Shown piece by piece: positions 1-47,386 of a stretch of DNA of 64,000 nt. This DNA comes from a virus. The number at the start of each line of letters is the position of its first letter. Position 1 is the first letter of the stretch. The notes beneath the pieces are model-generated. The model searched no databases, was not told the origin of the DNA, and saw only the letters and a list, made by a program, of their open reading frames with translations. The position numbers were made by a program, and so were the translations under genes. The DNA lies in the IMG/VR virus record IMGVR_UViG_3300027849_000012, positions 5,262 through 69,261 of that record, one strand, 5' to 3'.

Positions 1-134
1 ATTGACATCGCGCTTAATACGAAAATTGATGCAACCCATTTAATATACCAATCAGTGGTATGTTTAGGTGTTGCTGACTTAAAGATCCGCTTTGAATTAG
101 CTATTTCTTTTGGGTCATATTTAATTTCTTTCAT
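1..134 (-). CDS. Small membrane protein, partial (runs off window edge)
   Basis: Manual translation from ATG at 134: MKEIKYDPKEIANSKRIFKSATPKHTTDWYIKWVASIFVLSAMS...; overlaps the stop of the SET gene. Confidence 0.6.
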   Translation of the reverse strand, partial: MKEIKYDPKEIANSKRIFKSATPKHTTDWYIKWVASIFVLSAMS

Positions 135-504
135 CAATTGCACCTTGCATTAAATCATAAAGTTCAAATAGATCAACATCATCATATTCGCTCATACTAT
201 ATTTTAATAGTATTTCATCACCAGCCTCAATATCGCGTGTGGTGAATAAGTAGCACGTTTCTAGATCACTATACTGATCTGGATAATCAATAGCACTGCA
301 GTTAGGATTTTCTGTGTGGTTTATAAACCCGCCGAGTGGAGTTCGTATCCACTCATCATTTATGTAAATCCTAAGCAATCCTAAATTTGTATCTTCTGCT
401 ATATCTTCTATAGCAAATAAGCCGAGACCATGGACACCACTTTCTCTAATTGTTAACGCTTTTGGCAATGGTCTATATGTATTATTGAAGTGTGTCATAG
501 TCAT
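121..504 (-). CDS. SET-domain protein (putative lysine methyltransferase)
   Basis: SET motifs SGVHGLGLFA, FINHTENPNC, RDIEAGDEILLKY. Confidence 0.85.
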   Translation of the reverse strand: MTMTHFNNTYRPLPKALTIRESGVHGLGLFAIEDIAEDTNLGLLRIYINDEWIRTPLGGFINHTENPNCSAIDYPDQYSDLETCYLFTTRDIEAGDEILLKYSMSEYDDVDLFELYDLMQGAIDERN

Positions 505-18171: not shown

Positions 18172-18326
18172 TATACACCTCTTTCAGATATTGAAGCAGT
18201 ATTGCCGTTTTCTTCCATTCTGTCTTTAAATACTGTTGCGGCTTCTAGATCTGCAAAAATATAATCTGCAAGAAGCTCACCTTCGGGTGTTTGAGCAATT
18301 ACTCTATATGCGGTTGATTTTGTCAT
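18171..18326 (-). CDS. Hypothetical 51-aa protein
   Basis: MTKSTAYRVIAQTPEGELLADYIF...; GGAG SD. Confidence 0.55.
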   Translation of the reverse strand: MTKSTAYRVIAQTPEGELLADYIFADLEAATVFKDRMEENGNTASISERGV

Positions 18327-18765
18327 TTACAAACTCCAATATAATGTCACAGTTTTCTAAGAATTCCCGGCCGACACCAACAGCCGCAATATAATCAGTC
18401 TTTACATACACGTGGGTAATCCCACTCTGGTATATCAATTTAGCACAATTAATGCAAGGCATGTGAGTGCAGAATAGTGCAGCACCCTTTGAACTTTCCG
18501 AACTCATTGCTACTTTTGAAATAGCATTTGATTCGGCGTGAATGACTTCTGGTTTAGTTTTAAGTGAATCTTTAGTGGGTCGACCAGTAAATGGAACATG
18601 ATCTTCACACTCGTTAGTCCAACCACTAGGCATACCATTATAGCCGATAGAGATGATGCGATCATCTTTCACAATAATCGCACCAACTTGAGCTCTCTTG
18701 GCCGTACTTAAACGCGCAAATATGGACGCGGTGTCCATAAATGCATATTTAAACTTATCTTTCAT
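18304..18765 (-). CDS. cd: dCMP deaminase
   Basis: VGAIIV, GYNGMP, HAESNAI, PCINCAK. Confidence 0.93.
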   Translation of the reverse strand: MKDKFKYAFMDTASIFARLSTAKRAQVGAIIVKDDRIISIGYNGMPSGWTNECEDHVPFTGRPTKDSLKTKPEVIHAESNAISKVAMSSESSKGAALFCTHMPCINCAKLIYQSGITHVYVKTDYIAAVGVGREFLENCDIILEFVNDKINRI

Positions 18766-19578: not shown

Positions 19579-20232
19579 TTAGTTAATTTCTACGGGGAAT
19601 ACTTTATATATAACTTCAGCACAAGCCTTGGCTATGTCCATATGCTCACGTTGAGTACCATTGGCCATACGTAAATCACAGTAGTGAATCCACGACCTAA
19701 GTGTACCATTCATGTATAATCTGCTTACGGTGTTACCTTCGGGCAAGACGGCCCTAGCTTGTTCTTTAGCAATACCATTTTCGATTGCCCAACTATAGGC
19801 ATCAGTAGCGGCATGAATTACTGCCTGCTGCCTCATATCCCATTGATCTTGGAGTTCAACATTTGCAGCATCAATACTGTTCTGTCTATTCTTAGGATCT
19901 TGCATTCGAGCCCCTCTTCGGACAAATGACAACTCTTTAGTAGGGTCGGCATATCGTTGAGAGAATTCTTGGAAACTAAAGCTTCGGTGACGTAGCATCT
20001 GACGTGCAATGTCCCTAGTGGTTTCTACTTCCATACAAACCGACACCATTTCAAGTGGTGACCAGTGTTTATGTTTCATTAGATATTTAACTAGTTTTTC
20101 CGAAGTTACTTCGTTTTGTTGATTGTCTGGGTTTGATACCCTAGCACAATATGCAACCATCTGGAGAAGGTCTTCGTTAAGATCACTGTCTGCAGGTGGT
20201 TGACTATATGATATAAGTCTCGCATTGAACAT
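19579..20232 (-). CDS. thyX: Flavin-dependent thymidylate synthase
   Basis: ARVS, HWSPLEM, RHRSFSFQEFSQRY, EQARAVLP. Confidence 0.95.
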   Translation of the reverse strand: MFNARLISYSQPPADSDLNEDLLQMVAYCARVSNPDNQQNEVTSEKLVKYLMKHKHWSPLEMVSVCMEVETTRDIARQMLRHRSFSFQEFSQRYADPTKELSFVRRGARMQDPKNRQNSIDAANVELQDQWDMRQQAVIHAATDAYSWAIENGIAKEQARAVLPEGNTVSRLYMNGTLRSWIHYCDLRMANGTQREHMDIAKACAEVIYKVFPVEIN

Positions 20233-22103: not shown

Positions 22104-23146
22104 TAGATCTGCTCCGGATCAAAGTCAATAAGTGATTTATGTCCAATCTGATACTGGTTGATCAGAAATTCTCTGAACTTAGCAGTATTAACAATAGGTT
22201 TCCAGAACTCGTCCGTTCTAGTTTGCTTCTCTCTTACCTTTGGTTCCACCACTTCACCAGTCTCTTGGTCAACAACATTGTACCAACCATTACTAGGTTT
22301 AATGACAAACCCACCAGCAATAGCAATCTCAAGAAGACCACTGTTACGTTCAACACCACCGTCCCAAGATACAGATACTGGGATCTTAGATTTCTCTTTA
22401 ACCATTCGAGACTTCTCAACATTGATAATAAAATCATATCCCGTAACCTCCATGCCAGTCTTGTTCTGTCTACGACCAATAATCCAGATGTTATCGGCTG
22501 AGTAGTAAATACCCGTGCCACCTGAAACAACTGCTTTAGGGAACAGGCCCATTTCTTGATACGTATGGTTGATTGCCAATAGAGAGACATCTTTCATTGT
22601 CAGGTATGGGGTAACCATACGGAATAGTCCCTTAATAGCCTTAGCTCTGGACATATCAGCAACTGATTTTTCATTCAAGGCGTCTTCTAGTTCTTTCTTA
22701 GAAGCAAGGTTACCGATCGAATCAATGACAATAATCACTTTATCTTTACGATCAATGTTATCTAATTGGCCTACCAGATCAAACTTTAGTTGTTCCACAT
22801 CCGTAATAGGTGTGTGAAGAACACGTGTGGTATCAATGCCAAAGGCTTCAAAGTATGATTGTGGTGATCCGAACTCGGAATCATAAAATAGCATTACAGC
22901 ATCTTTATGTTCTTTGAGATAAGCACTTGCCATTAATAAGGCAAATGATGTCTTAAAGTGTTTAGATGGCCCAGCCAATACAGTAAGACCAGATGTGAGT
23001 CCACCTTCGGGATCGCCCGATAGTGCAACATTAATCATAGGTACTTCAGTTTTAACTGAGGTTTTCTCGCCGAAGAAAATACTATCAGACAGTATATCTG
23101 TAGTTTTAATCTTAGAGTTCTTTTTTAGTTTATCCATTATAGACAT
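22103..23146 (-). CDS. uvsX: RecA-like recombinase UvsX
   Basis: AGPSKHFKT, FYDSEFG, IDSIGNLASKKE, SGGTG. Confidence 0.95.
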   Translation of the reverse strand: MSIMDKLKKNSKIKTTDILSDSIFFGEKTSVKTEVPMINVALSGDPEGGLTSGLTVLAGPSKHFKTSFALLMASAYLKEHKDAVMLFYDSEFGSPQSYFEAFGIDTTRVLHTPITDVEQLKFDLVGQLDNIDRKDKVIIVIDSIGNLASKKELEDALNEKSVADMSRAKAIKGLFRMVTPYLTMKDVSLLAINHTYQEMGLFPKAVVSGGTGIYYSADNIWIIGRRQNKTGMEVTGYDFIINVEKSRMVKEKSKIPVSVSWDGGVERNSGLLEIAIAGGFVIKPSNGWYNVVDQETGEVVEPKVREKQTRTDEFWKPIVNTAKFREFLINQYQIGHKSLIDFDPEQI

Positions 23147-23403
23147 TAATATTTTCTCCTAGGTTGAAAGTTTCCCGACATGCGTTCCTCTTTCTTGGTT
23201 CTAGCTTTGGCCTCTGCCTTCTTGCGTTTCTTCTTCCATGTAGGCTTTTCGTAATATTCCTTCCTACGAACATCTTGCAGAGTACCTGCTCGGTCAACAG
23301 CCTTCTTAAATTTGCGTAATGCAACTTCAAAGGGCATTTCTTTTTGTGGTCGCTTATCCTTGGGGTTCGTGTTTACCCTAGGCGTTAAATTGATGCTTGG
23401 CAT
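23146..23403 (-). CDS. rpsU: Ribosomal protein bS21
   Basis: FEVALRKFKK...DVRRKEYYEKPT..KRKKAEA. Confidence 0.9.
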   Translation of the reverse strand: MPSINLTPRVNTNPKDKRPQKEMPFEVALRKFKKAVDRAGTLQDVRRKEYYEKPTWKKKRKKAEAKARTKKEERMSGNFQPRRKY

Positions 23404-23431: not shown

Positions 23432-23460
23432 ATTATAACAGGCTTTAATCAGTTTGTAAA
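23432..23460 (-). promoter_or_regulatory. Early/middle promoter for bS21-uvsX
   Basis: TTTACA-N17-TATAAT, extended TG. Confidence 0.7.
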
Positions 23461-23873
23461 GTGTTTTCTACAACTCTTTTTCGTAAATCGGAAGAGGAGA
23501 ACCTATGATCTCTTTTATTAAAGTAGAAATCAATATCTCGTTGTTTACACAAATCTCTCCCAGTGAAGTCTTTATCTCTATACTCTTCACCCATAATCTT
23601 GACATCTATCTGATACATGCCTAGAATATCCATCAACTCCTCTTCGGTATTATACACTAGGATCTCGTCCACATATCTAATAGCCGATAGTTGAGCTTGT
23701 CTTTCGACAATGTTTTGAATTGGTTGGTTTTTGTTTGGCCGGTCGACCGACGGGTCATTCTGTAGAGCACAGATTAAGTAATCGCAGACAGTCTTTGCCT
23801 CTCTCAACATCATGACGTGGCCCGAGTGTAACAAGTCAAAGGTGGAGCACGTTATTCCTACTCGTTTCTGCAT
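23445..23873 (-). CDS. tagD: TagD-like (glycerol-3-phosphate) cytidylyltransferase
   Basis: TFDLLHSGH, ER..QL, YVDEI, FSSSDLR. Confidence 0.8.
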   Translation of the reverse strand: MQKRVGITCSTFDLLHSGHVMMLREAKTVCDYLICALQNDPSVDRPNKNQPIQNIVERQAQLSAIRYVDEILVYNTEEELMDILGMYQIDVKIMGEEYRDKDFTGRDLCKQRDIDFYFNKRDHRFSSSDLRKRVVENTLQTD

Positions 23874-24559
23874 TAACTCACCCATAATTCAATAGCATCA
23901 TCAATTGATAAACCATTGATGTGCAAGTATTCGCCGTTAGTTTCACTTTCAACCAGGGGGTTATCTTGCAACCATTGTTCTTTAAGGGTCTCGCGTTCGG
24001 GTCCAGCAGGCTTATTGAACTTAACTTTCACTGTTGGGATATATCCAGCAATAGTTGGTACAATAGTTAAATGATACTCTGTACTGTTACCGGACTTTGA
24101 ATGGTATGTGAATTGCTGGCCAGTACTTTGTGAACTCTTGACATGATCTCGGATATACGTGCCGTACAGACTGTAAAATTTTTGTTGTTCATCGGGGATA
24201 TTAATCTGTTGTTTTTGCCATTCAGCGTATAAATCTAATGCGCGCATTTTACACCATGTGTGTGAATACATGCCTGCAATTTTATTAAGTTTTGGGTCAA
24301 ATAGGGTAATCAACAGGGACTCACATGCAGCTTGAACTGCTGCAGTAGCTTCCCTTTCCACAGTAAATTTTTCCGTGTTACGACATATGATCACTAGGTC
24401 GTTTATGTTAACGTCTTTATTTATAAGATGGTCTACACAACGATCCTTTTGCCCTCTACCTATATATTTTGGCGCTATTGACATGTCAAATATGCCATCG
24501 GGCCAATAGCCGTATTGATACTGCCCTAATGATTCCCAAAACTTTGCAGGAATTTTCAT
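23873..24559 (-). CDS. Hypothetical protein with a degenerate GIY-YIG (LEM-3-like) N-terminus
   Basis: QYQYGY...KYIGRGQKDRCVDH...ESLLI...LN. Confidence 0.55.
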   Translation of the reverse strand: MKIPAKFWESLGQYQYGYWPDGIFDMSIAPKYIGRGQKDRCVDHLINKDVNINDLVIICRNTEKFTVEREATAAVQAACESLLITLFDPKLNKIAGMYSHTWCKMRALDLYAEWQKQQINIPDEQQKFYSLYGTYIRDHVKSSQSTGQQFTYHSKSGNSTEYHLTIVPTIAGYIPTVKVKFNKPAGPERETLKEQWLQDNPLVESETNGEYLHINGLSIDDAIELWVS

Positions 24560-24624: not shown

Positions 24625-24888
24625 TTATGACAATAAAACTCCTTTAATTTCAGCGATATCCACTATTGCGGCGCCTTTGCCTTCATAGTCCACTGGCAAT
24701 CCTTTGGCCCAATTGATGTAAACTTTGTCGCCAACTGATACAGTAGTGACGTCACCTCCTACAGCTAATACAACTCCAGGTTTGGTACCCTTAGTAGTAT
24801 CACCAGTGAGAATGATCCCACCTGTTGTCACTGAGTCAGTTTTCGTATCGGCAACCAATACGTTGTTTCCTATCATTTTAATATTCAT
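24625..24888 (-). CDS. groES: GroES-like co-chaperonin
   Basis: TTGGIIL mobile loop, GVVLAVG, VGDKV. Confidence 0.85.
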   Translation of the reverse strand: MNIKMIGNNVLVADTKTDSVTTGGIILTGDTTKGTKPGVVLAVGGDVTTVSVGDKVYINWAKGLPVDYEGKGAAIVDIAEIKGVLLS

Positions 24889-26072: not shown

Positions 26073-26243
26073 TTATTGTACCGCCTCTTCAAGTTCAGCT
26101 ACATACTTTTTCAAGTCTAAAATTTCAATCTCTAAGAAGTTAATGTACTCTTCAACAACTGCGCGTTCACACAAGGTTTCACAACAAATTTCTATCTGTT
26201 GTTTAGCTCTAGTTTCTAAGGAGACAGAGGTTCTTCTAACCAT
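26073..26243 (-). CDS. Hypothetical 56-aa protein
   Basis: MVRRTSVSLETRAKQQIEICCETLCE...; TAATG coupling with dexA. Confidence 0.6.
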   Translation of the reverse strand: MVRRTSVSLETRAKQQIEICCETLCERAVVEEYINFLEIEILDLKKYVAELEEAVQ

Positions 26244-26833
26244 TAAATCATCTCCTGTACTAGATATTGCATTCGCATTACATCCATAGCAACGTCATGT
26301 TTAGCATCGTGTGCAACAAACTTATCTTCTAAGCCGGGAACCATAAAGGAGTTCCTAATGGATTTATTTAGTAGAGTCATACCTTCGATAGTTGATCTAG
26401 TGTCTCGAACGTTATAGAATGGGTAAGGGTCTTTCTTACCGACTTCACCTAGCAATGATTCCAAAAACATAGGATCAAAGGTGTTACCCCGAGTATAAAT
26501 CCGCTTGATTTCAGCTGGGTTACCGGCGGCTGTAAGCCATGCATGTAAATTCGCAATGGGCATATCATCTGCTGCAGGCTTAAGTTGTTTCTGTGCTTCT
26601 TCTGATTGCTCACTCCACCAATTTAAAGTGTCTTGGTCTATCTTACGGCCGTAGGTTCGTACTTGGTCTGCAACATCAAACTTAACTGTAACAGCATTTT
26701 CAAGGAGTTCTTCATAAGTGTAACCAGGTTCTCCGAAGAAACTGGAGTCAAATGCTAGTGCAGCAAGTGAAATAACTACGGATTCTCTAGCATTAGTGCC
26801 TAGGGTTTCAAAATCATAAATCAAACTTTTCAT
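26243..26833 (-). CDS. dexA: DexA-like 3'-5' exonuclease (DEDDh)
   Basis: IYDFETLG, TLNWWSEQ, RGNTFD, VRDTRS, HDAKHDVAMD. Confidence 0.88.
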   Translation of the reverse strand: MKSLIYDFETLGTNARESVVISLAALAFDSSFFGEPGYTYEELLENAVTVKFDVADQVRTYGRKIDQDTLNWWSEQSEEAQKQLKPAADDMPIANLHAWLTAAGNPAEIKRIYTRGNTFDPMFLESLLGEVGKKDPYPFYNVRDTRSTIEGMTLLNKSIRNSFMVPGLEDKFVAHDAKHDVAMDVMRMQYLVQEMI

Positions 26834-27671
26834 TAATATAGTCCTGTAAATTGTGTTGTGCGATCCAACCAAGTGCCTTAACTTGATCGGTTTTAAGTTC
26901 TCCGTCCATTCTGTTACCAGCAACGGATTCTGTTATAATAGGTTCTGCTCCTAAGTAACCTACTAGGTCTAATATAGAATGTTTTTCATCGCATCCGATG
27001 CCGTAACCGTCACCTGCTCCGTAAAATCCGGATAATATAAGACCCGAAACAATATCATCAACATGAGTAAAATTCCTTAATTGAGTTCCTGGTGATGTTA
27101 CTGGTAACTGCGTTGCGCCATTCTTTACCATACCAATGAACTTAGCAATAACCGTTGAATAGTTGCCCGTGCCAATTTCATGGTCACCATAAGCATTATA
27201 AAAGTACACGATTGTGTAGTGTAAACCATACCACTCGGAATACCTTTTTAGAAACTCTGTGTTCTGAGCTTTAGTGTATGCATACGGACTCATGGACTTA
27301 CCATCTTCGCCGACAGAGAATTTAGTGGATGAACCTGCATAGACTAACTTTGCTCCGGATTTCTTAGCAAATTTAACCACTTTAGGGAATGACATATAGT
27401 TATATTCCATAACAGTATCAAAATCGTTGAACGATTGTTCAACCCTGGCATACTCTCCTAGATGGAAGATGAAATCGAATTTAACATCTTCGTGGAAATA
27501 GACATCAATTAGCTGAGTTGAACCAGTAATGTAGCTTATTCCTGAGTGATGGTTATCTGAACTGCCAGCATGATAGTTATCTAAGCAGGTGACATCATGA
27601 CCGGCTGAACGTAATTCTTTGCATAAAGCAGAACCGATAAATCCGGCACCACCTGTAACTAATATGTCCAT
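26814..27671 (-). CDS. NAD-dependent nucleotide-sugar epimerase/dehydratase
   Basis: VTGGAGFIG, YAGSS, YAYTK, YFYNAYG, RNFTHVDD. Confidence 0.9.
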   Translation of the reverse strand: MDILVTGGAGFIGSALCKELRSAGHDVTCLDNYHAGSSDNHHSGISYITGSTQLIDVYFHEDVKFDFIFHLGEYARVEQSFNDFDTVMEYNYMSFPKVVKFAKKSGAKLVYAGSSTKFSVGEDGKSMSPYAYTKAQNTEFLKRYSEWYGLHYTIVYFYNAYGDHEIGTGNYSTVIAKFIGMVKNGATQLPVTSPGTQLRNFTHVDDIVSGLILSGFYGAGDGYGIGCDEKHSILDLVGYLGAEPIITESVAGNRMDGELKTDQVKALGWIAQHNLQDYINEKFDL

Positions 27672-27692
27672 ACTTTCTCCTTAATAGTGTAT

Positions 27693-27721
27693 ATTATATC
27701 ACACCCAAAACCATTTGTCAA
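27693..27721 (-). promoter_or_regulatory. Consensus sigma70 promoter
   Basis: TTGACA-N17-TATAAT, extended TG. Confidence 0.8.
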
Positions 27722-27733
27722 CCATTTATTGTC

Positions 27734-27757
27734 AATGGTACCTAATTGGGTACCATT
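27734..27757. repeat. Near-perfect 24-bp palindrome just upstream of the promoter
   Basis: AATGGTACCTAATTGGGTACCATT. Confidence 0.7.
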
Positions 27758-27763
27758 TATCGG

Positions 27764-28099
27764 CTATCTATGTCTATATGGGACAGAATCCACTGGCCGG
27801 TCGTCAGCTTCTTTAATGAATATACCATCAACCATGCGGCCTTTGCGGTCCTTAATGTCATTATAAGCAACTTCCAAACAGGTTCTCATGTTCGTGTTAT
27901 TGCGTTCGGCAATGTTAATTAGAACAACCATAATGTCTCCGATATCGTCCTTAACATCTTTACCCTTACATATATTATCCGATAGTTCACCAACCTCTTG
28001 AATCAGCTTGGCCAGTTGATCCTTATCATTGGCACCGTCGATTAGGTTACGGTCTCTGTGCCATTGTGCAGTGGCTGTAATTAGTTCATCAATTGTCAT
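27764..28099 (-). CDS. mazG: MazG-like NTP pyrophosphohydrolase
   Basis: KLIQEVGEL, DDIGDIMVVL, AYNDIKDRKG. Confidence 0.85.
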   Translation of the reverse strand: MTIDELITATAQWHRDRNLIDGANDKDQLAKLIQEVGELSDNICKGKDVKDDIGDIMVVLINIAERNNTNMRTCLEVAYNDIKDRKGRMVDGIFIKEADDRPVDSVPYRHR

Positions 28100-28108
28100 G
28101 TTTATCCC

Positions 28109-29289
28109 TTAGTTATTTCTAAAAATGTCTCGTGTATAGACTTTGGTTATAACGTCTTCGATTTCTGGTTCTATGCGATTAGTGACGATCACATCAGAAA
28201 GCTTCTTAAATTTCTTGATATCAGTTTCTACGATGCATCCTAGGAATTCATCCTCAGCGATAGATGGTTCATAAATCACGACTTTTATATTGTTATCAAC
28301 GAGACGTGCAATTACACCTTGGATTGCCGAACTTCTATAGTTATCTGATCCAGACTTCATAGTCAGTCGATGGATACCTACAACATTAACACCGTCTACT
28401 TGTAGGATTTTATTAGTAATCCAATCCTTGCGGTTTTCATTAGCATATACAATGCTCTGGATAATCTTATTAGGGATTCTATGTTTACGGAAGTTAGCTA
28501 GTAGCTGTTTAGTATCTTAAGGAAACAGTAACCACCATACCCAAACGATGGATTAGCATAACCTTTACCAATTCTGCCGTCCAGTGTAACACCTTCAATG
28601 ATTTCCTTGGGGTCGATTCCAGTAGCTTCTGCGTACATATCTAGTTCATTAAAGAAAGCAACTCTCATGGCAAGATACGTATTAGCAAACAACTTAATAG
28701 ATTCTGCTTCTTCTGTCCCAGTGTATATGATAGGTGGGCCTGGGTAGTCGGGAATGATAGCTTCTTTAATCAACTCGGCAAAACTCTTACCTAGTTTAAG
28801 TTTATCCCCTATCACAATTCTTTCAGGTCTTAAGCAATCACGTAATGAAGTACCTTCTCGGAGAAACTCCGGCGAGAACATAATGCCGTAATGTCCAAAA
28901 ATTTTCCTCATTTCATCCACAAAACCTACAGGGATTGTAGACTTAATTACTATCGGACACATTGTGTATTCCATAGCATCTCGGATACAACCTCTAATAG
29001 AATCCGTATTGAAGTAATTTCTATCGGCATCATAATCAGTGGGTGTAGCAATTATAATCCAATCAGCATTCTTATATGCAGCTTTTCTATCCAAAGTAGC
29101 TTTTAAAGTGAGTTTCTCTGATGTGAGATATTCTATGATACACTTATCTTCAACTGTAGACTTACCAGCATTAATTAAATCAACTCTAACTGGATCAATG
29201 TCCAATACGGTGACTTCATTATATCTAGCCAACATAGTTGCGTTTGCCATTCCTACATAACCTGATCCTACTACTGTCACCTTTCTCAC
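28109..29289 (-). pseudogene. ugd: UDP-glucose 6-dehydrogenase, frameshifted near 28515-28525 (pseudogene or sequence error)
   Basis: GSGYVG, KSTIPVG, SPEFLREG, KLFANTYLAMRVA, PSFGYGGYC; the -1 frame continues DTKQLLAN...MKSGSDNYRSS...VYTRDIF. Confidence 0.85.
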
Positions 29290-30206
29290 AATGCGCTCCT
29301 CATAACATATTCCAAGGCACGTTCTGCCTCCTTATCTAACGGTCTTTTGTTATACCAATTACCATTATCCATATCTAGCTCTCTACACATCCAAGCAATT
29401 TCTTTTGCTGTTATAGGATATTTAGACTTGATTGCATTGTTAGCTAGAGATACCATAATCTGATACATCTTGTGATACCAACCACTTCCTGTAATGGACT
29501 TGTATTCATTCTCTAGCTTTCTAGGAAAGAATGGGCAATCTCTATACGAATTCCACTTTACGTCTGTGTTAGTCAAAGAGTTTTTCATATGATTGACCAT
29601 AGCTTCTTGCATTTGTTTGGGAAGTTTGTCAAAGAATGTATTAGAGCTCTTTTCAATATAGGTGTGTTTATCCATTAAATCTTCAGGATTAATAGGATCG
29701 CCGTCGTTTGTAAATATGAAATTATGAGCATTAGCATACGTACCCGGGATATAATACATACGTGATAAATCTTTAGTCTGTATATCACCAACTTCACCTA
29801 GTTCTTTATTTAAGGCAAACCAGAAATGTTTAATCTGTTCTCTATTCACTTCAGCAGTGAGTGGGAATACCAATCTGAATTTAGGGGTTTCTACTGTAGA
29901 AGAAGCAGTAGAGTAGCAAACGTATTTGAAGCTGCCACATTTGGCATCCAAAAATTCTTGCATATCTCCGTCCATATCATCAACATCTACTGCACACCAC
30001 CCGCCCCATTTTATGACGTTATCATTCTTTCTTGTGGTTCCGTCTACATAAGATGCAGGAGACATTAGATATGCAGATGTTTTATCCTTTCTAGGGACAG
30101 CTGCTAGTTTGAATAGGATTTTAGCGAAATCATCAAAGGTTTCACAATTGATGGTATTAACGGTCTTGGTCTCATATAGAGATTTGAATAGTGTACCTGT
30201 TATCAT
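29286..30206 (-). CDS. AEP-superfamily primase/primase-polymerase-like protein
   Basis: AVDVDD, YSTASS..PKFRLVFPL, DLSRMYYIP, helical C-terminal domain. Confidence 0.7.
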   Translation of the reverse strand: MITGTLFKSLYETKTVNTINCETFDDFAKILFKLAAVPRKDKTSAYLMSPASYVDGTTRKNDNVIKWGGWCAVDVDDMDGDMQEFLDAKCGSFKYVCYSTASSTVETPKFRLVFPLTAEVNREQIKHFWFALNKELGEVGDIQTKDLSRMYYIPGTYANAHNFIFTNDGDPINPEDLMDKHTYIEKSSNTFFDKLPKQMQEAMVNHMKNSLTNTDVKWNSYRDCPFFPRKLENEYKSITGSGWYHKMYQIMVSLANNAIKSKYPITAKEIAWMCRELDMDNGNWYNKRPLDKEAERALEYVMRSAL

Positions 30207-30213
30207 AATGTAT

Positions 30214-30242
30214 ATTATATCATAAATTGATCAAGATGTAAA
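30214..30242 (-). promoter_or_regulatory. Early/middle promoter giving a near-leaderless mRNA
   Basis: TTTACA-N17-TATAAT; the -10 ends 7 nt above the ATG at 30206. Confidence 0.7.
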
Positions 30243-31387
30243 CCATTATTTGAGTTATTTTTAAACTTTATTATGGCACCTTCACATATGCGTTCCAATC
30301 TTGCCGTGTAAGCTTCTTTACTTGTTGCTTCATAACAAGCATCGGCAATACTCTGTCTGGTATCAAGTGAGAGGTTAGCCCACTCTTTGGTCTTGGCTAA
30401 GAGGTCTGCTTTATTTTCAAAGATGTGGACGTATTTCTTCATCGCCTCGGGCAGCATCTCTTTCGCTGGATGAAGTCCTTTATAATTCTTCACCAAAACT
30501 GGAACCCCGCGGCTAAGAGACTCTAGCGAGGTGATAGTGAATGTGTCGTACGGCGCGATCCCAACGAAGGTACAAGCAGACTTGCCGATTTCCTGCACCA
30601 TCTCGCCGTGGTCTACGTTAGTCCTAGTTGTTCGCTCAGGCCTATTCTCAAATCTATCCATATTCTTTTGGATATACTTACCATTTTTACTGTTGTTATT
30701 GAGATAGTTAAATGCAGTGTATACCTCAGTGTATACCTCAGTGTCATCAAACACGTCATGTATATAGAACGTTGACTTCTCGGTATTAGCTGCAGAACAA
30801 TGTCTGACTACACCATCAGATGGTTGAACTGTTTCCCTCTCGGAATAAGCACAGAATAAAATATCATCTGCTGATACGTTAGCTTCAGGCCAGCGGCCGT
30901 AGAACTTATCGGTTCGCATTTTGTGGTAATCAGAACAGTTTATAAAAGTGTGACCCTGGGTGCAGAAATCATGCATCAAGTCAACGGAGGCTAAATCGCT
31001 CCAGAAGCCAGGGTTTGTCATAGACGAGAATATCACAGGTATGCCAAGGCCCATTAGTCTACTATAGGGATGGTCGTTAAACAGATAGTTTGATAATATC
31101 ACATCCGGTTTAAACTCCCTAATAGACTTAATTAGCTCTTTGGCAATTACACCTCTTTTAGATTTCTCGTAATCCTTAACATCCATACCCTCAGGTATAG
31201 TCTCTTTATAGTAATCAATTCCGTTCATATGATTATGCAGATCAGTGAATGCTGTATACAGTCTTACATCATGACCAGCATCTTGCAATGCTCTAACTTG
31301 ACATAGAGTACCCTGGTCAATGCCAGAAGCTCTCTTATGATACGAAAAGAATGTTCTAAAGGTATATGGAAGTATAAATACTCGCAT
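30215..31387 (-). CDS. GT-B fold (GT4-like) glycosyltransferase
   Basis: ALQDAGHDVRL, FKPDVIL, DTFTITSLESLSRGVPVL (variant of the E-x7-E signature). Confidence 0.75.
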   Translation of the reverse strand: MRVFILPYTFRTFFSYHKRASGIDQGTLCQVRALQDAGHDVRLYTAFTDLHNHMNGIDYYKETIPEGMDVKDYEKSKRGVIAKELIKSIREFKPDVILSNYLFNDHPYSRLMGLGIPVIFSSMTNPGFWSDLASVDLMHDFCTQGHTFINCSDYHKMRTDKFYGRWPEANVSADDILFCAYSERETVQPSDGVVRHCSAANTEKSTFYIHDVFDDTEVYTEVYTAFNYLNNNSKNGKYIQKNMDRFENRPERTTRTNVDHGEMVQEIGKSACTFVGIAPYDTFTITSLESLSRGVPVLVKNYKGLHPAKEMLPEAMKKYVHIFENKADLLAKTKEWANLSLDTRQSIADACYEATSKEAYTARLERICEGAIIKFKNNSNNGLHLDQFMI

Positions 31388-31392
31388 CAGGA

Positions 31393-31704
31393 TTACAGTA
31401 CCTCGTCTATCTCTGGGTTATCCAACTGGTCTTCACCTACATATCGCATTAAGGTATTAGCCTTCTTATCGAGTACTGGGTGCCAAATGCTCTTGGTTTT
31501 ATAAGTCATTCGCTGGCCGAGAAGTTCTTGGAACTCACGATAATCTTCTTCATTCCTAAATCGGACTTTAAGCAACTTATATGCTTCATCCTGTGGCTGA
31601 TTAAAGTCTGGCATTCCATCCCAATCATATGGGGTAGTCTCTTCTTCGCTGCCATCTAGGACAAATAGACTTGCTGGTTCATAGTTAATAGTTTTATTGC
31701 TCAT
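31393..31704 (-). CDS. Small protein coupled to the GREB1-like glycosyltransferase
   Basis: WDGMPDFNQ, VRFRNEEDYREF, TKSIWHP; overlaps the GT stop. Confidence 0.7.
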   Translation of the reverse strand: MSNKTINYEPASLFVLDGSEEETTPYDWDGMPDFNQPQDEAYKLLKVRFRNEEDYREFQELLGQRMTYKTKSIWHPVLDKKANTLMRYVGEDQLDNPEIDEVL

Positions 31705-32653
31705 TGAATTCCTCTCCTTCTTCATCTTTTACTGCTGATTGTTTTAATTTTACTAGCTTCATGCCGTAGTTATCAGTACCTTTAGTTATATTTAGATCAT
31801 CCCGTTTAGTGGGTTTATGATGAGTATACACTGAATAATCAATGTGGTGATGCCATCTGCCCCATTTCTGAGTAATCTTAACAACGTCTGGGTGTTGTGC
31901 ATGTAGGGACTCAGCAAACTCTCGTCTATGATCCCAATCACCCTCTCGGGTTTCTACTGTGCCAGGTTTATCAATACCATACACCTCTTCCGTATTACCA
32001 CCTTTCATTGTCAACGTAGCAACTTTACCACATAGCATTGCATTGAATAGGTAAGTATGGTAACCAGCTTTCAGGACCCTCAGTGATAAATCGGTATCTT
32101 CATTGAAACGGCCTCTCCAAGCGAAATCCGGGTAGATGTCATTAGACAATAGGATACAAGAATATACTCGGGTATTATGATAATATGGTGGCCGCTTTGT
32201 TGCGGCTGGACAAAAGAATGCATAGTTCATACCAGACATTTTAACATCGGTATACCTATCAGTAAAGTCTTCACACACCCTGAAACACGTAGGAGTTGTC
32301 ATCTTGGTCTTACGGTTATTGTGCAACCTATAAAAATTGTGGATATTATCATCTAGTATCCAATGTCTCTTATGACCTTCTTTAATCGAATGTTCCCACA
32401 CCCAGTTCCGAACTGGTATAGACCCACCAATAAGTCCGGTGACTTCACATTTCTTAGCCCATTTTGGATTTTCTCTAAATCCCTCAGGTAACACTAAAAT
32501 GTTTGCTGGGTCTATTACTGCAGAATAAGCAGCATAATCTGCTTGTTCAATTACGATCCTATAACGCGCGCCCATATCTTCCAGTGACTTTACAGTAAGT
32601 CTTGATTCAGCTCGGCCCTTGGAAATAATGTATATCGGATACTTGGATTGCAT
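31694..32653 (-). CDS. GREB1/TAGT-like GT-A glycosyltransferase (nucleobase-modifying family)
   Basis: PIYIISKGRA, VRNWVWEH, WILDDNI, YSCILL, FNEDTDLSLR, MKGGN. Confidence 0.8.
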   Translation of the reverse strand: MQSKYPIYIISKGRAESRLTVKSLEDMGARYRIVIEQADYAAYSAVIDPANILVLPEGFRENPKWAKKCEVTGLIGGSIPVRNWVWEHSIKEGHKRHWILDDNIHNFYRLHNNRKTKMTTPTCFRVCEDFTDRYTDVKMSGMNYAFFCPAATKRPPYYHNTRVYSCILLSNDIYPDFAWRGRFNEDTDLSLRVLKAGYHTYLFNAMLCGKVATLTMKGGNTEEVYGIDKPGTVETREGDWDHRREFAESLHAQHPDVVKITQKWGRWHHHIDYSVYTHHKPTKRDDLNITKGTDNYGMKLVKLKQSAVKDEEGEEFNEQ

Positions 32654-32972: not shown

Positions 32973-33001
32973 ATTATATCATACTTTTGTGCAAATGTAA
33001 A
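32973..33001 (-). promoter_or_regulatory. Early/middle promoter for the glycosyltransferase operon
   Basis: TTTACA-N17-TATAAT, extended TG. Confidence 0.75.
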
Positions 33002-33004
33002 CCC

Positions 33005-35509
33005 CTATCCGAAAAAATCTTCAAGTGAGGATTGTTGTTCAGAAGACCATCCAACGGCCTTTAGAATTGGTTCGATCGGACCCAAGAAGGTCTTAGCAAA
33101 TTGTAGTTCGTAGTCTATGTATTTAGACAAGGCAAATTCGTCGGGTAAATATTGAGTGAACCCAACGACATTCTCCTTTAAACTGTTTGGAACTTTTAGG
33201 TATATAAATTTGATCTTCTCGCCATTCTTGATAGGTTCATACTTCTTGTCGAGGCTGTACTGTTCTAGCAACTTGTTGTGCAGTAATGCAGCTCGGACAT
33301 GGATAGGTGAACCCTTCTTATAAATTGTAGCACTATCCCGATAGTCGGTGACGTTGGATACACCACGTGGGAAAGCAATCTTATCAGCAGGAAGTGTCGA
33401 GAAGTATTCTTTGAATTGTTTAATTGATTTCTGGACGGTCGCCTCATCTGATATCATAATAACCTTAAAGATGGCTTTAAGAGCATCACGGCATGGTTCT
33501 GGTGTAGAGGATTTAATAGCCTCGATACCCATGATTTTGAGTTTGGGTTCTGCATATCGAACACCCTCGTTATCAAACACATTAAGGATGTAGCGTTTCT
33601 TAGCAGTCCAGATACCACGATCAGCAATAACCTCACGTTTCATAACCATACGGTTCTCAATGCCACCCATCATTTCAAACAGATTAGCATAAGCCTCTTC
33701 AAGCACAGGTTCTAGTTTCTCAGAAGCAACTGTATCAAGAAAGTCAATGGGGTTGGACGGGTTAACAGCCTTGACCAGATCATCCATAGCTACATAAAGT
33801 GAATCCGTGTCAATAGCAATAACATAGTCTTTCTTAGTTTTAAGAATACTCTGCATATATTTGTTAATGGCAACTTCTGCCCATCGGATTGTGAGCTGAC
33901 CAGATAATGTAATAGCCTCGGCAATGCGTTGATCAAAGAATTTAAAATATTTGTTACCCATAGCACCATAAAGTGAATTAAGTAGAATCTTGATAGCCAT
34001 TTGTCGGTTCTCGGCAATATTGATTCTGCGTTCTATGGCATAAACATCTTGTTTACTTCTCTTGTCAACCTTCTGCAAGTCCTTCTGCGCTTGGATCATT
34101 TCTTTCTTGATCTCGACTCTCTCGCTGTACATACCGTCAACTAAGGTTGGCATAAACCCTTTCTTATCTGTACGGAATAACTGGCCGTTACCACCAATGC
34201 CTTTGCCTGGGTTATCAAATTTGTACCCATTAAGCAACTTTTCAATGTCCACGTTCATAACTTCACCATTAGCAATTGTCTCGGTAGACATATTGTACTG
34301 CATAATGAGCGACGGATATAGTGAGTTAAGGTCAAAGGATACTACGTTTTTATGCATTCCAACCATCGGGTCTTTTACATAACCACCAGGATAATCGGAC
34401 TTAATCTTGTTTTCATAGAACGGTGCGACGGTCTTATTAGCGTGTAAGTATCGGTAAATGATACATTCCCAAATAGAGGTAACGCCGAAGGTGTCTCCAT
34501 AATTCACGCCACCCTGATAAGCCATAGTAAGACATAGAGTAATCAAACCCATCTTATCCTCAAGCCGCTCTACGATTTCAACGTCTTTGATATTATAGTC
34601 AATAAACTTCTGGTGATCAAATTTATATAATGTGTGTAACGAGCCGTGTTCTGCATATGACAATTTCCTCTCGCCGAGGACAACATTTGCGATATGATCA
34701 AGTCTATAGGATTCTTGGTTGCCGTATGAGTACCCGAATTTCTTAAAGAGCTCTAGGTAATCAAGAGTGTCTATGCCTTTGAGATCATATGTAGCCTGTG
34801 ATCTATTCATGATCTTGACGTCATATCGGTCTACTAATCCCCAGGGCGAGAATCGTTTAACCATGTCCTCACCGAGTATTTTAAGTGTTCTATTAACGAG
34901 ATACGGAACATCAAAGAATCGAACATTCCAGCCGGTGATAATGTCGGGGCAGTTTTTAGGAAGTGACCAGTGATATATGAAATCTGATAACAGTTCAGCC
35001 TCAGAGCCGCACTTCTTATAAATGACTTCTTTGTCTGTTAACTTAGCAGATACGTCATAGTCATTAAGACCCCAAACGTAATAGATGTTATCAATATTGT
35101 TTCTTAAAGCAATAGAGATAACTGGATAATTAGCATCTTCGGGTAATGGGAAACCCTCATCAGAAGCAACCTCGATATCAAATGACGTCACATTAATCTT
35201 AGCACGATCCCACTCAATGATTCCGGGGAACTCATCGTTGATAAAGGAATGTATGTGTTTGTCGTTTCCGAATATTAACCTACCAGCAGTCTGTTTATTA
35301 GCAGCAATCCATTCTTTGGCATCTCGCATAGACTCCATCTGCACAGGTGCAACAGGAACTCCAGTCAGAGATTTCCATGGTGTAGGTTTAGGTGTGTTAA
35401 CAAATAGTGTTGGTTTGTACTTGATTTTTTCTTGAACTTTGCGGCCGTTCTTATACCCACGATAGAGTAACATATTGCCATAACGAGCTACGTTAGTGTA
35501 AAATTCCAT
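33005..35509 (-). CDS. gp43: Family B DNA polymerase gp43
   Basis: FDIEV, GWNVRFFD, SFDLNSLYPS, KILLNSLYG, IDTDS, KKRY. Confidence 0.97.
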   Translation of the reverse strand: MEFYTNVARYGNMLLYRGYKNGRKVQEKIKYKPTLFVNTPKPTPWKSLTGVPVAPVQMESMRDAKEWIAANKQTAGRLIFGNDKHIHSFINDEFPGIIEWDRAKINVTSFDIEVASDEGFPLPEDANYPVISIALRNNIDNIYYVWGLNDYDVSAKLTDKEVIYKKCGSEAELLSDFIYHWSLPKNCPDIITGWNVRFFDVPYLVNRTLKILGEDMVKRFSPWGLVDRYDVKIMNRSQATYDLKGIDTLDYLELFKKFGYSYGNQESYRLDHIANVVLGERKLSYAEHGSLHTLYKFDHQKFIDYNIKDVEIVERLEDKMGLITLCLTMAYQGGVNYGDTFGVTSIWECIIYRYLHANKTVAPFYENKIKSDYPGGYVKDPMVGMHKNVVSFDLNSLYPSLIMQYNMSTETIANGEVMNVDIEKLLNGYKFDNPGKGIGGNGQLFRTDKKGFMPTLVDGMYSERVEIKKEMIQAQKDLQKVDKRSKQDVYAIERRINIAENRQMAIKILLNSLYGAMGNKYFKFFDQRIAEAITLSGQLTIRWAEVAINKYMQSILKTKKDYVIAIDTDSLYVAMDDLVKAVNPSNPIDFLDTVASEKLEPVLEEAYANLFEMMGGIENRMVMKREVIADRGIWTAKKRYILNVFDNEGVRYAEPKLKIMGIEAIKSSTPEPCRDALKAIFKVIMISDEATVQKSIKQFKEYFSTLPADKIAFPRGVSNVTDYRDSATIYKKGSPIHVRAALLHNKLLEQYSLDKKYEPIKNGEKIKFIYLKVPNSLKENVVGFTQYLPDEFALSKYIDYELQFAKTFLGPIEPILKAVGWSSEQQSSLEDFFG

Positions 35510-38917: not shown

Positions 38918-39589
38918 TTATACACCATAGCTACTAGATCTCTCTAGTGCGATAAAATATTCTACAGGGTAATTGGTATTCTGCCAATTAGATATCAACT
39001 TAGATGAAATTGATACATAGTAATCACCCGGCAATAGTTTCAAGTTAGGGATATTAACCACAAAATTGAATGTTTCCTTACATGCGTTATCCCTGTCAAT
39101 GATGATATCGAATGTATTAGCAGTGGCATCTTTAACATCTAGCACCTTGGCAGTAATAACACCACCATCGCCACTGATTGACAATTCTAAGTGACCCAGT
39201 ACTGCAGCTGCCTTCTTGATTTTATCCAAGATAGCCTCTGATAGATTGATACCAACTTCTGCATTAGGCATCGTGATATCTTTAGTGGGCTGAGTTAGAA
39301 TATCAGTCTCTGCGTAGTAGTATTGGATTCGTTGATCACCACTAGCAACTTCCATTGATTTCTCATTGAAGGATACTTGTGCGTTTTCAATCAAGCTGTG
39401 GACAGAGAGGAATTCATTAAGATCATAGACCCCAAATTCGACGGGAAAGTCCTCAGTGATTTCAGCAATTGCCATTATATTTTTAGCTTCAGAAATTGTC
39501 TTAACTTTCTGGCCAGGTTTCATCACTAGGTTAGGGTTAACGGTAGCAAAGTTTTGTAACACTTTGAGGGTGTCGGTTGAAATTATCAT
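38918..39589 (-). CDS. gp45: Sliding clamp gp45
   Basis: LQNFATVN, FGVYDLNEFL, NLKLLPGDY, YFIALE. Confidence 0.93.
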   Translation of the reverse strand: MIISTDTLKVLQNFATVNPNLVMKPGQKVKTISEAKNIMAIAEITEDFPVEFGVYDLNEFLSVHSLIENAQVSFNEKSMEVASGDQRIQYYYAETDILTQPTKDITMPNAEVGINLSEAILDKIKKAAAVLGHLELSISGDGGVITAKVLDVKDATANTFDIIIDRDNACKETFNFVVNIPNLKLLPGDYYVSISSKLISNWQNTNYPVEYFIALERSSSYGV

Positions 39590-46813: not shown

Positions 46814-47386
46814 TTATACCATAAATAGTTCTAGTTTTTCCCGAGCTTTCTCTTCTTTAGCAAAGACCTTAATTGCTTCATCCTTGGTTTTAATAGTACT
46901 GATTCTTTGTCTTAATGTATCAACATAGTTCATAGTCTCTTGAGCGCCTTGGCCGTCCATTCCCATAGAAACAAAGTCTTCAATACCCATCTTTTCAATG
47001 AACTTAAACTTGATATCCTGTTGCTTCTTCTCTTTGGTTATTCGTCTGATAAAGGCGAAATAACAGATCTGAGTGAAGTATGAGAATGCATTAGGTTTAC
47101 CCGTACGTGTAGCGGTTTCAATGTTATAATTATTGATTGCTCTTAAACAGTTCTCAACAGCATCCATTACCATTTCTTCACGGTAAGTATAACGTACAAA
47201 GTTTGGTCTATGCGATAAACCCTCGGAAATCTTCATAAAGCACGTAGCAATATAATCAGGAACAACAGGTGGTCTAACCTCTCGTTGTTTAGAATCCCGG
47301 GCAATTACAGCATAATCAAACACAGCTTCTGAGAAGTCTCTATTGTTAACGTAATGTGGTTTTTCTTTCGGCTTAAGTTTGGTCAT
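46814..47386 (-). CDS. gp55: Late-transcription sigma factor gp55
   Basis: HYVNN, LSHRPNF..YTYREEM, NAFSYFTQICY.AFIRRI.KEKKQ. Confidence 0.93.
   Translation of the reverse strand: MTKLKPKEKPHYVNNRDFSEAVFDYAVIARDSKQREVRPPVVPDYIATCFMKISEGLSHRPNFVRYTYREEMVMDAVENCLRAINNYNIETATRTGKPNAFSYFTQICYFAFIRRITKEKKQQDIKFKFIEKMGIEDFVSMGMDGQGAQETMNYVDTLRQRISTIKTKDEAIKVFAKEEKAREKLELFMV

Follow-up and report, generated by a model that had tools for sequence, protein, structure and literature searches.

Introduction

In phages T2 and T6, a member of the TAGT glycosyltransferase family adds glucose to DNA that carries glucosyl-hydroxymethylcytosine (glucosyl-hmC) (PMC13216743). The same source describes T4 alpha-glucosyltransferase (AGT) as co-purifying with the sliding clamp gp45, and it counts 'solitary' TAGT genes in 288 of 753 phage genomes, calling their function undefined. 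The hydrophobic-acidic C-termini of T4 gp43, gp55 and gp33 are described as interchangeable ligands of that clamp, on which the T4 and RB69 polymerases dock by such a C-terminal peptide (PMC2988020). ParB-like activators of about 210 amino acids (aa), which consist of an N-domain and a C-terminal domain and have no DNA-binding domain, are described as enabling a phage thymine dioxygenase to work on double-stranded DNA (PMC13229309). Here we describe a gene cassette of a marine T4-like phage in which a TAGT-family gene lies close to the DNA polymerase gene gp43. The cassette was found in a window of 64,000 bases (bases 5262-69261 of the 69,261-base IMG/VR contig IMGVR_UViG_3300027849_000012, hereafter G000), and we consider it reasonably likely that it glycosylates the phage's own DNA.

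An earlier note on this DNA had proposed a DNA-hypermodification locus here, with an acidic sugar made by a private pathway. What stands of that proposal is a glycosylation module in the replication region with DNA as its likeliest target, because the second transferase carries a clamp-peptide tail and the partner of TAGT shares a domain with ParB proteins. The primase-like gene probably has no part in it, and an acidic sugar is one option among others.

Results

A TAGT-family glycosyltransferase and its partner lie beside DNA polymerase

The minus strand bears nearly all G000 genes. On it the order is gp43, a 98-aa DUF6561-like open reading frame (ORF), TAGT, a 110-aa protein (p110), a GT-B glycosyltransferase, an AEP-like gene, ugd, MazG, an SDR and a dexA-like gene; the names that the earlier note had given were confirmed there by ORFs, Pfam, PHROGs and NCBIfam, with hidden Markov model (HMM) E-values far beyond chance (Table 1). 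For comparison we used the relatives G001 (120,810 bases) and G002 (120,963 bases), two shorter relatives (G003 and G004), and the phages C48C1 and HTVC008M, which lack TAGT as judged by HMM. C48C1 is complete, and the completeness of the records G000 to G004 is 38-67%. A scan of IMG/VR for TAGT relatives gave 191 pattern-matched stretches, 184 of which encode one; we retained 80 loci, many of them cut short and some of them possibly near-duplicates from different samples.

The TAGT protein scored 154.1 bits with PF20691, whose cut-off is 27.5, and the match spans profile positions 1-205, which places the protein in the family. Acidic motifs of the DxD type seen in GT-A enzymes, D101-D102-N103 and E185-D186-x-D188, were invariant across 26 sequences and would be expected to have a catalytic role. 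TAGT has a pI of 8.55 and p110 one of 4.66. Neither of them, nor GT-B, contains a hydrophobic 19-residue segment (maximum hydropathy <= 1.01), and PDB sequence searches with TAGT, GT-B and the AEP-like protein gave no significant match.

The reading of p110 as a small partner of TAGT held up well. The TAGT protein of Aeromonas phage 65 is 398 aa long and has its TAGT domain at residues 112-323; a p110 profile built from 26 sequences aligned to its residues 1-110 (hhalign 97.9%, E 6e-13). BLAST with this Aeromonas phage protein found the fused form also in Vibrio, Paraglaciecola and Pectobacterium phages. Because p110 is fused N-terminally to TAGT in these other phages, it is by alignment a split-off domain of the TAGT enzyme. 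In a HMMER search of 1.84 billion representatives, 2,759 proteins matched the profile at E <= 0.001, of which 918 reached E <= 1e-10; the majority of the matches are stand-alone proteins of 80-120 aa. Pfam analysis of 23 longer matches revealed four TAGT fusions, two proteins with ParB_N at E <= 4e-6, two with weak ParB_N, one with weak LAGLIDADG and 14 with no family. The p110-like part forms the C-terminal portion of ParB_N proteins of about 210 aa, as illustrated by the 213-aa protein P0263, to whose residues 131-211 the p110 profile aligned (hhalign 99.2%, E 1.4e-19). Thus p110 resembles, at the level of profiles, the C-terminal domain of ParB_N proteins. In domain layout, the ParB_N plus p110 proteins resemble the activators as PMC13229309 describes them. 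Pfam scans revealed no ParB N-terminal domain in G000 or G001, and the contig, which has the C-terminal-like domain p110, has neither ParB_N nor 5mYOX in these scans; p110 is accordingly classed from its domain content as resembling a part of the ParB-like activators that accompany 5mYOX, not as a member of that family. Tandemly duplicated forms of the p110-like domain, 176-200 aa long, also occur, and one 423-aa protein, that with weak LAGLIDADG, contains the domain too (P0129, P0135-P0137, P0160).

A swappable second transferase carries a polymerase-type C-terminal tail

The gene after p110 had been called a GT-B enzyme. In Pfam its match to Glyco_transf_4 is sub-threshold (E 6.2e-5, 23.5 bits vs a cut-off of 28.5), and it was the structure model that confirmed the two-Rossmann GT-B fold. 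An AlphaFold2 model made with 10 homologues reached a pLDDT of 85.4 and a pTM of 0.87, and Foldseek matched it to 259 PDB chains at E <= 0.001, with GT4-type GT-B enzymes on top. The best folds were 8x3q and 7fg9 (E 3.7e-13, TM 0.70/0.78), and the matches include the phage HY126 glycosyltransferase 9ir0 (E 2.1e-12) and T4 AGT 1xv5 (E 2.3e-11). Among cultured phages, relatives were found only as Rhizobium Innesvirus (Pootjesviridae) proteins (8/8 records, about 25% identity, E 3e-6 to 3e-4), which carry weak Glycos_transf_1.

We scored the content of the slot between p110 and AEP in the 62 loci that hold both genes. A second TAGT paralogue occupied it in 16 loci, a 262-aa protein (U262) in 11, a 318-aa protein (U318) in nine and GT-B in nine; 11 loci had nothing there, three had an SDR, two a 99-aa ORF and one another gene. 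Three of the second TAGT paralogues, checked by Pfam, gave E-values of 4e-24 to 6e-35. Even phages whose TAGT is 77-81% identical to that of the window hold different cassettes in the slot, and the slot therefore shows the pattern of a diversifying locus. U318 and U262 were considered as TAGT relatives and rejected, having no similarity to the TAGT profile. In Pfam at E <= 1, U318 had no match and U262 gave weak S-adenosylmethionine (SAM)-methyltransferase hints alone (E 0.017). The nearest named Atlas clusters to U318 are PF04488 families (score 0.96), a lead without alignment, and U318 is probably a DXD-type GT-A (GT32-type) transferase; its structure model was unusable (pLDDT 37.6).

In G000 the polymerase gp43 ends in ...SSLEDFFG, the late sigma factor gp55 in ...KLELFMV and GT-B in ...GLHLDQFMI. 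We defined a strict tail motif, [LI][EDS]xF[FM]x? anchored at the C-terminus, which is present in 3 of the 86 G000 ORFs, namely these three, and has a rate at internal positions of <= 0.0006. Among the 1,232 plus-strand ORFs of the 80 loci it was carried by gp43 (78/78), U318 (9/9, with the ends SSLDEFF or TSLDDFF), GT-B (6/10) and the TAGT family (3/95, all of them second-slot paralogues), and by no other ORF. Looser variants of the tail were seen in one more GT-B homologue (SNLNEFFVA) and in five more second TAGTs (NLLDFL, ITEFYG). If U318 is a transferase, the tail is found in this slot on three families of transferases. In C48C1, the position of TAGT directly after gp43 is taken by a D12-class (Dam-like) adenine DNA methylase (L082 8101-8985), which ends in STLDAFFG; the C48C1 polymerase ends in ATLEDFFG. 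A looser form of the tail was also noticed on a 322-aa protein of the neck/structural region (window 61827-62795; ...PVDFFIG).

The tail of GT-B thus has the sequence pattern of the gp45 clamp ligands, and in the model it is disordered (residues 382-390). From this we infer that the second-slot enzymes ride the gp45 clamp by a predicted docking of their C-termini, in which case DNA would be their substrate. A predicted complex of gp45 with GT-B residues 330-390 scored 0.19 against a mark of 0.32, which is no answer, and nothing is drawn from this single run.

The cassette is conserved across marine viral contigs

Pfam and PHROG scans identified G000, which CheckV rates 38% complete, as a T4-like myovirus with gp43, gp44/62, gp45, gp46/47 and uvsW/X/Y, as well as gp41, nrdAB, gp23, gp20 and gp17. 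Its major capsid protein (gp23) is 59.6-61.4% identical to those of Methylophilales phage Melnitz, C48C1 and Pelagibacter phage HTVC008M, and because of this identity of about 60% G000 is placed by sequence in a pelagimyophage-like marine group. The stretch is present in at least 20 metagenome runs from 8 studies, 17 of which hold at least half of its words.

The cassette is conserved across marine viral contigs. Among the 80 loci, tblastn recovered gp43 in 78, p110 in 77, AEP in 62, the N-terminal part of Ugd in 52, the SDR in 44, MazG in 28, a 146-aa nucleotidyltransferase in 28 and GT-B in 14. Thirty loci span the whole interval from gp43 to uvsX, and these hold an SDR (30), a Ugd-type gene (29, 18 of the long kind), AEP (29), the nucleotidyltransferase (24), MazG or a PRA-PH-like pyrophosphatase (21) and a phosphomannomutase (3). 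The only genes common to the TAGT-bearing G000, G001 and G002 and not in C48C1 or HTVC008M are TAGT, p110, MazG, thyX and the 146-aa nucleotidyltransferase. The last of these travels with TAGT, and the extent of the pathway drawn in the earlier note falls short of it (Table 1). Promoter matches in the region, including that listed between gp43 and the cassette, are no more numerous than in shuffles.

Table 1. Features of the cassette and related genes, in window positions.
Feature	Position	Strand	Assignment or remark
gp43 DNA polymerase	33005..35509	-	DNA_pol_B E 7.6e-29 (Pfam); phrog_262 E 1e-296
Sigma-70-like promoter match TTTACA-17-TATAAT with TG	32973..33001	-	between gp43 and cassette; lead only
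DUF6561-like ORF, 98 aa	32655..32951	-	between gp43 and TAGT in 61/80 loci
TAGT-family GT-A glycosyltransferase	31694..32653	-	PF20691 E 6e-45; phrog_842 E 6e-42
p110, 110 aa, no family	31393..31725	-	TAGT neighbour in 77/80 loci
GT-B (GT4-like), 390 aa, swappable slot	30215..31387	-	model and fold search; Pfam Glyco_transf_4 sub-threshold
AEP/PrimPol-like protein, helical C-terminal domain	29286..30206	-	phrog_9765 'DNA primase' E 1.7e-50
ugd (UDP-glucose 6-dehydrogenase), frame broken in assembly	28109..29289	-	NCBIfam PRK15057
MazG-like all-alpha nucleoside triphosphate (NTP) pyrophosphohydrolase	27764..28099	-	phrog_715 E 1.2e-34; Pfam 21.8 bits vs cut-off 22
Short extended-SDR nucleotide-sugar enzyme	26814..27671	-	Pfam Epimerase E 2e-37
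dexA-like exonuclease	26243..26923	-	Rv2179c-like E 7.1e-19
Cytidylyltransferase-like nucleotidyltransferase, 146 aa (RfaE domain II / TagD-like)	23445..23885	-	
gp45 sliding clamp	38918..39589	-	Pfam gp45-slide_C; presumed tail docking site
gp55 late sigma factor	46814..47386	-	phrog_234 E 7e-49
thyX	19579-20232		
dCMP deaminase	18304-18765		

The marine cargo of G000 includes PhoH, ribosomal protein S21, Cpn10, Hsp20 and a CobS-like ATPase; the cargo genes at window positions 121-504, 23146-23403 and 24625-24888 include a SET-domain protein together with this ribosomal protein S21 and the Cpn10 co-chaperonin. G001 also encodes CsgG/CsgF curli genes and a CHASE2-cyclase.

Sugar-donor genes of the cassette

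The assignment of ugd was right as to family, with the qualification that the gene is frameshifted in this assembly. It is split into a piece at 28498-29289 and a frame-shifted remainder ending at 28109, which match NCBIfam PRK15057 with E 3.5e-90 and 2.3e-24 (302.9 + 86.2 bits, below the equivalog cut-off of 757), so that the N-terminal, central and C-terminal domains are all present, though out of one frame. The assembly reads GGYCFLK and then shifts, because one base is deleted near 28516-28520, directly behind the catalytic Cys. We aligned contigs from four runs of four studies on 27700-29400; in all four runs one base more follows 28516 and the A at 28520 is a G, and the ugd coding strand reads GGYCFPKDTKQLL, which restores the GGYCFPKD catalytic motif in a single frame. 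Relatives have an intact ugd of 388-409 aa. Because contigs of 4/4 other metagenomes restore the frame, the break is an assembly error or a rare variant, and the gene is intact in the population.

The best NCBIfam rows for the SDR are ADP-heptose 6-epimerase (76 bits vs a cut-off of 275), GalE and RmlB, and its PDB relatives include 4-epimerases and UDP-glucuronate decarboxylases; the 7,114 SDR homologues carry only automatic 'UDP-glucose 4-epimerase' names. The enzyme could be of the 4-epimerase or the decarboxylase type, and its product could be UDP-galacturonate or a pentose. An acidic, uronic-acid-derived sugar, as the earlier note had it, is one option; since the SDR matches 4-epimerases and decarboxylases alike and the two are indistinguishable here, a pentose is equally possible.

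The 146-aa nucleotidyltransferase matched rfaE domain II (E 7e-20) and TagD-like proteins (E 3e-18) in NCBIfam, both under the cut-offs, and it may make a sugar donor. In more distant subclades the Ugd-like gene is short and the SDR is another one, and some of these subclades also have a phosphomannomutase or an FkbM-type methyltransferase. A 228-aa protein (p228, 23873-24559) was rejected as a stand-in for phosphomannomutase, since it has a GIY-YIG-like pattern by eye and no family match. Its N-terminus reads, by eye, YVYGY...YIGKG...R...H...N...E, and in relatives the gene is often found amid the sugar genes; it could conceivably encode a nuclease that distinguishes modified DNA from unmodified. 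As regards MazG, another co-occurrence of TAGT with an NTP pyrophosphatase was seen in Vibrio phage 1.076.O (L122; 23246-23875 and 6534-7703), where a MazZ-like dATP/dGTP diphosphohydrolase domain is encoded as well (PF18909 E 8e-30).

The AEP-like gene is probably the replicative primase

The earlier note had counted the AEP-like gene as part of the modification locus, which our comparison does not bear out. The motifs of AEP/PrimPol enzymes are DxD (I), sxH (II) and hD (III). In 20 sequences of the AEP-like protein D74/D76 and D146 were invariant, there was no invariant His, and the C-terminal half was conserved and helical; the protein had no match in Pfam and no sequence match in the PDB. 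Among cultured phages the best match, at 49% identity, is the C48C1 protein that carries the annotation primase. In HTVC008M a gp61-type primase adjoins nrdA (L093 34254-35246). No homologue of it was detected by tblastn in G000 or G001, and a search of the whole records found none in G001, G002 or the complete C48C1 (HTVC008M self-score 1.4e-228). Because the phages that bear AEP are without a gp61-type primase, AEP is probably a non-orthologous replacement of that primase and lies outside the sugar pathway.

Observations that weigh against DNA as the target

A number of results weigh against DNA glycosylation, and we collect them here. The first concern the enzyme that would prepare the acceptor base. 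The earlier note had reported no hydroxymethylase or TET/JBP gene in the window, and had asked for the rest of the genome to be searched for these and for C5 methylases; neither was found in the window, and the 120-kb relatives G001 and G002, used for the wider search, yielded none either (C5 methylase by the Pfam scan of G001). Specifically, the ThyA family (PF00303) was found in 0/6 records (G000-G004 and C48C1), with a positive control that rang in 10/14 genomes, and TET/JBP (PF12851) in 0/3 records (G000, G001 and G002), with a positive control that stayed silent. TAGT was thus not seen in association with an enzyme of the TET/JBP or ThyA family that makes hydroxylated pyrimidines. Among 88 ORFs of G000 and another 69 of G001, the latter taking in gp32/gp59, the curli genes and the baseplate, Pfam named neither a 2-oxoglutarate (2OG) oxygenase nor a C5 methylase. 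The PF12851 label is described as missing from about 17% of the 5mYOX contigs of phages (PMC13229309, section 12).

ThyX bears the canonical RHRxxSxxxxSxR motif. The earlier note had taken thyX plus dCMP deaminase as a sign of normal dTMP synthesis, but a modified cytosine is compatible with both genes; T4 has both td and cd. In the cultured TAGT phages Aeromonas 65, Vibrio henriette and Kuja, the ThyA homologues have N177 and D169 and are of the dUMP type. These residues rule out a dCMP hydroxymethylase or a 5-hydroxycytosine (5hoC) synthase, and from them the three proteins would be either plain thymidylate synthases or dUMP hydroxymethylases; that all three phages checked have the dUMP type counts against a DNA target. 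G001 strongly avoids GATC, with 8 sites seen vs 392 expected, which would be unexpected if one base were wholly masked; G000 does not avoid it in this way, with 210 seen vs 288 expected. Palindrome avoidance as a proxy for DNA masking was set aside, being mixed and non-decisive. TCTAGA is also rare in G001 (3 seen vs 32 expected), and HTVC008M avoids many palindromes.

Further points come from gene context and from the tail itself. In the 48-kb Vibrio phage 1.076.O, portal and MuF genes flank a fused p110-TAGT gene, and a scan of 36 ORFs of this phage found no nucleotide-modifying enzyme save an N6/N4 methylase and no nucleotide-synthesis gene. C48C1 has no TAGT and yet retains an SDR and a short Ugd next to gp43, and so these sugar genes may serve another acceptor; it also has a glycosyltransferase and a carbamoyltransferase elsewhere. 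The ParB-like protein adjoining the TAGT of Lactobacillus phage phi jlb1 showed no similarity to p110. Finally, the tail is a sequence motif only, and it is absent from 3/10 GT-B homologues (which end in CLFFQ), from 8 of 17 second TAGTs and from 11/11 U262 proteins.

Discussion

Our preferred reading is that DNA is glycosylated during or just after replication. The TAGT and p110 pair would act on DNA, as its family membership and domain fusions suggest, and the swappable second transferase would be tethered behind the fork by its C-terminal peptide to gp45, which T4 AGT also binds, a placement suggested by the motif and its distribution; the base-proximal sugar could come from either transferase. 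The phage would supply its own donors: Ugd, whose family is established, would make UDP-glucuronate, and the SDR, likewise assigned to a family, would convert it to the 4-epimer or a pentose, while the 146-aa nucleotidyltransferase may make a second donor. More speculatively, MazG may trim the deoxynucleoside triphosphate (dNTP) pool.

A more specific form of the DNA-glycosylation reading, which we put forward tentatively and regard as somewhat unlikely, is that this very abundant marine clade places a uronic-acid- or pentose-containing glycan on its DNA without a ThyA-family or recognisable TET/JBP enzyme. The sugar would then go directly onto a canonical base, or onto one prepared by an unrecognised acceptor enzyme, with interchangeable clamp-tethered transferases and a ParB-derived helper that opens the DNA for TAGT. 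A candidate for the unrecognised enzyme is ThyX, whose gene accompanies TAGT in G000, G001 and G002 and is missing from both relatives that lack TAGT.

Three other explanations have to be weighed. That these are auxiliary genes for the host surface or host metabolism, which remodel envelope glycans or nucleotide-sugar pools, for instance to block superinfection, and leave the DNA unmodified, seems to us distinctly unlikely. Such a function is how UDP-glucose 6-dehydrogenase, rfaE and glycosyltransferases have been read in pelagimyophages, in relation to the O-chain (PMC7029224), and this reading counts against ours, as do the persistence of SDR and short Ugd in TAGT-less C48C1 along with its other transferases and the empty PF00303 and PF12851 searches for an acceptor-making enzyme; the gp43-uvsX interval, moreover, holds unrelated cargo such as ribosomal protein S21, Cpn10 and a cell-wall hydrolase. 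However, TAGT, p110 and GT-B are without the hydrophobic 19-residue segment, a polymerase-type tail on the second-slot enzymes would be of no use at a membrane, the p110 domain is common to ParB_N proteins, and the one TAGT-family enzyme that has been characterised has DNA as its substrate (PMC13216743). If instead TAGT and p110, perhaps with the second transferase, act on virion or replisome proteins, the fused p110-TAGT gene of 1.076.O, between portal and MuF-like head genes, would find an explanation. The eukaryotic TAGT relative GREB1 has been reported to glycosylate protein, and the virions of mycobacteriophages are glycosylated by phage transferases. Yet the marine clade and Vibrio phage henriette have TAGT in the replication module by DNA polymerase, and DNA is favoured by the tail as well as by the link to ParB. 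Because DNA-modifying genes also occur in late or packaging modules, as does mom of Mu, the gene position in 1.076.O is ambiguous. We regard protein glycosylation as highly improbable.

The last explanation agrees with ours on the target and differs on the sugar: DNA would be glycosylated by TAGT, p110 and the slot enzyme alone with host UDP-glucose, and ugd, the SDR, MazG and the nucleotidyltransferase would be neighbours that serve some other purpose, with no uronic sugar on the DNA. Marine T4-like phages commonly carry MazG and thyX. The sugar genes persist in C48C1 in the absence of TAGT, the nucleotidyltransferase lies outside the interval in two loci (L077, L078), and separate sigma-70-like matches precede AEP-ugd-MazG (30242-30214) and the SDR (27721-27693). 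What makes this account unlikely is the constancy of the sugar genes, with an SDR in 30/30 and a Ugd-type gene in 29/30 of the spanning loci, in the same interval as TAGT. Distant subclades swap the Ugd/SDR pair and add a phosphomannomutase, so that function is kept, and known phage DNA-sugar clusters are described as carrying private donor pathways (PMC13326640).

If DNA glycosylation is right, a globally distributed phage group would have hypermodified DNA that is as yet unmeasured, with a bearing on the sequencing and quantification of marine viromes and on phage encounters with restriction and CRISPR defences. 'Solitary' TAGTs would gain a function, and unrelated transferases would be seen to acquire the polymerase clamp peptide, so that in T4-like phages this peptide could serve as an easily read marker of enzymes that act on DNA. 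The result would also pose a chemical question, namely which base accepts sugar without a known hydroxylating enzyme. In the literature that we searched, no paper was found that treats the cassette as a DNA-modification system, although the supplements of these papers may bear on the point.

Several described systems invite comparison. The pelagimyophage lipopolysaccharide (LPS)/O-chain genes come from the same phage group and are of the same types (ugd, rfaE-like and glycosyltransferase genes), but the reading given in PMC7029224 rests on GT8 enzymes in the hypervariable tail-fibre region, whereas here we find a replication module, TAGT, a ParB-like partner and clamp-type tails. With the 5mYOX (TET/JBP) and base J clusters the cassette shares p110, which matches the C-terminal domain of short ParB_N proteins, and their post-replicative route would fit the presence of thyX. 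Glycosyltransferases (31%), ParBs (27%) and sugar epimerases are described as co-occurring with 5mYOX (PMC13229309, section 12). The cassette differs in that neither 5mYOX nor a ParB N-terminal domain was found in G000 or G001.

The glycosylated 5-hydroxycytosine clusters of RB69, DLP3 and Rhizobium phage RL38J1 are described as combining, as here, a GT4-like GT-B, a private nucleoside diphosphate (NDP)-sugar pathway and a dCTPase-type NTP pyrophosphatase, and 7fg9 and 8x3q, the best PDB folds of the window GT-B, are also listed for RL38J1 gp151 (PMC13326640). RL38J1, whose DNA is glycosylated, belongs to the same family, Pootjesviridae, as the Innesvirus relatives of GT-B, and the matched gene may or may not be one of the three transferases named for RL38J1. 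These clusters start from a ThyA-family 5hodCMP synthase, which was not found here, use arabinose or galactofuranose donors and not Ugd products, and are without TAGT and p110. The gentiobiosyl-hmC system of T2 and T6, formed by AGT and the TAGT-family beta-glucosyl-HMC-alpha-glucosyltransferase, likewise pairs a GT-B with a TAGT GT-A enzyme in a T4-like phage. T4 AGT is described as binding gp45 (PMC13216743); here the tail of GT-B is of the polymerase type, and the fold matches of GT-B include T4 AGT. The T2/T6 system differs from ours, where no dCMP hydroxymethylase was found, p110 is obligatory, GT-B is interchangeable and there are own ugd/SDR donor genes. BLAST with the window TAGT and its Aeromonas relative gave no T2/T6 record among the matches listed, and the link is by profile only (PF20691, phrog_842). 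A missing base-preparing enzyme, p110, a Ugd-based donor route and an interchangeable, tail-bearing second enzyme set the cassette apart; by analogy, it would work most like the AGT and TAGT pair of T2/T6 and the RB69, DLP3 and RL38J1 clusters.

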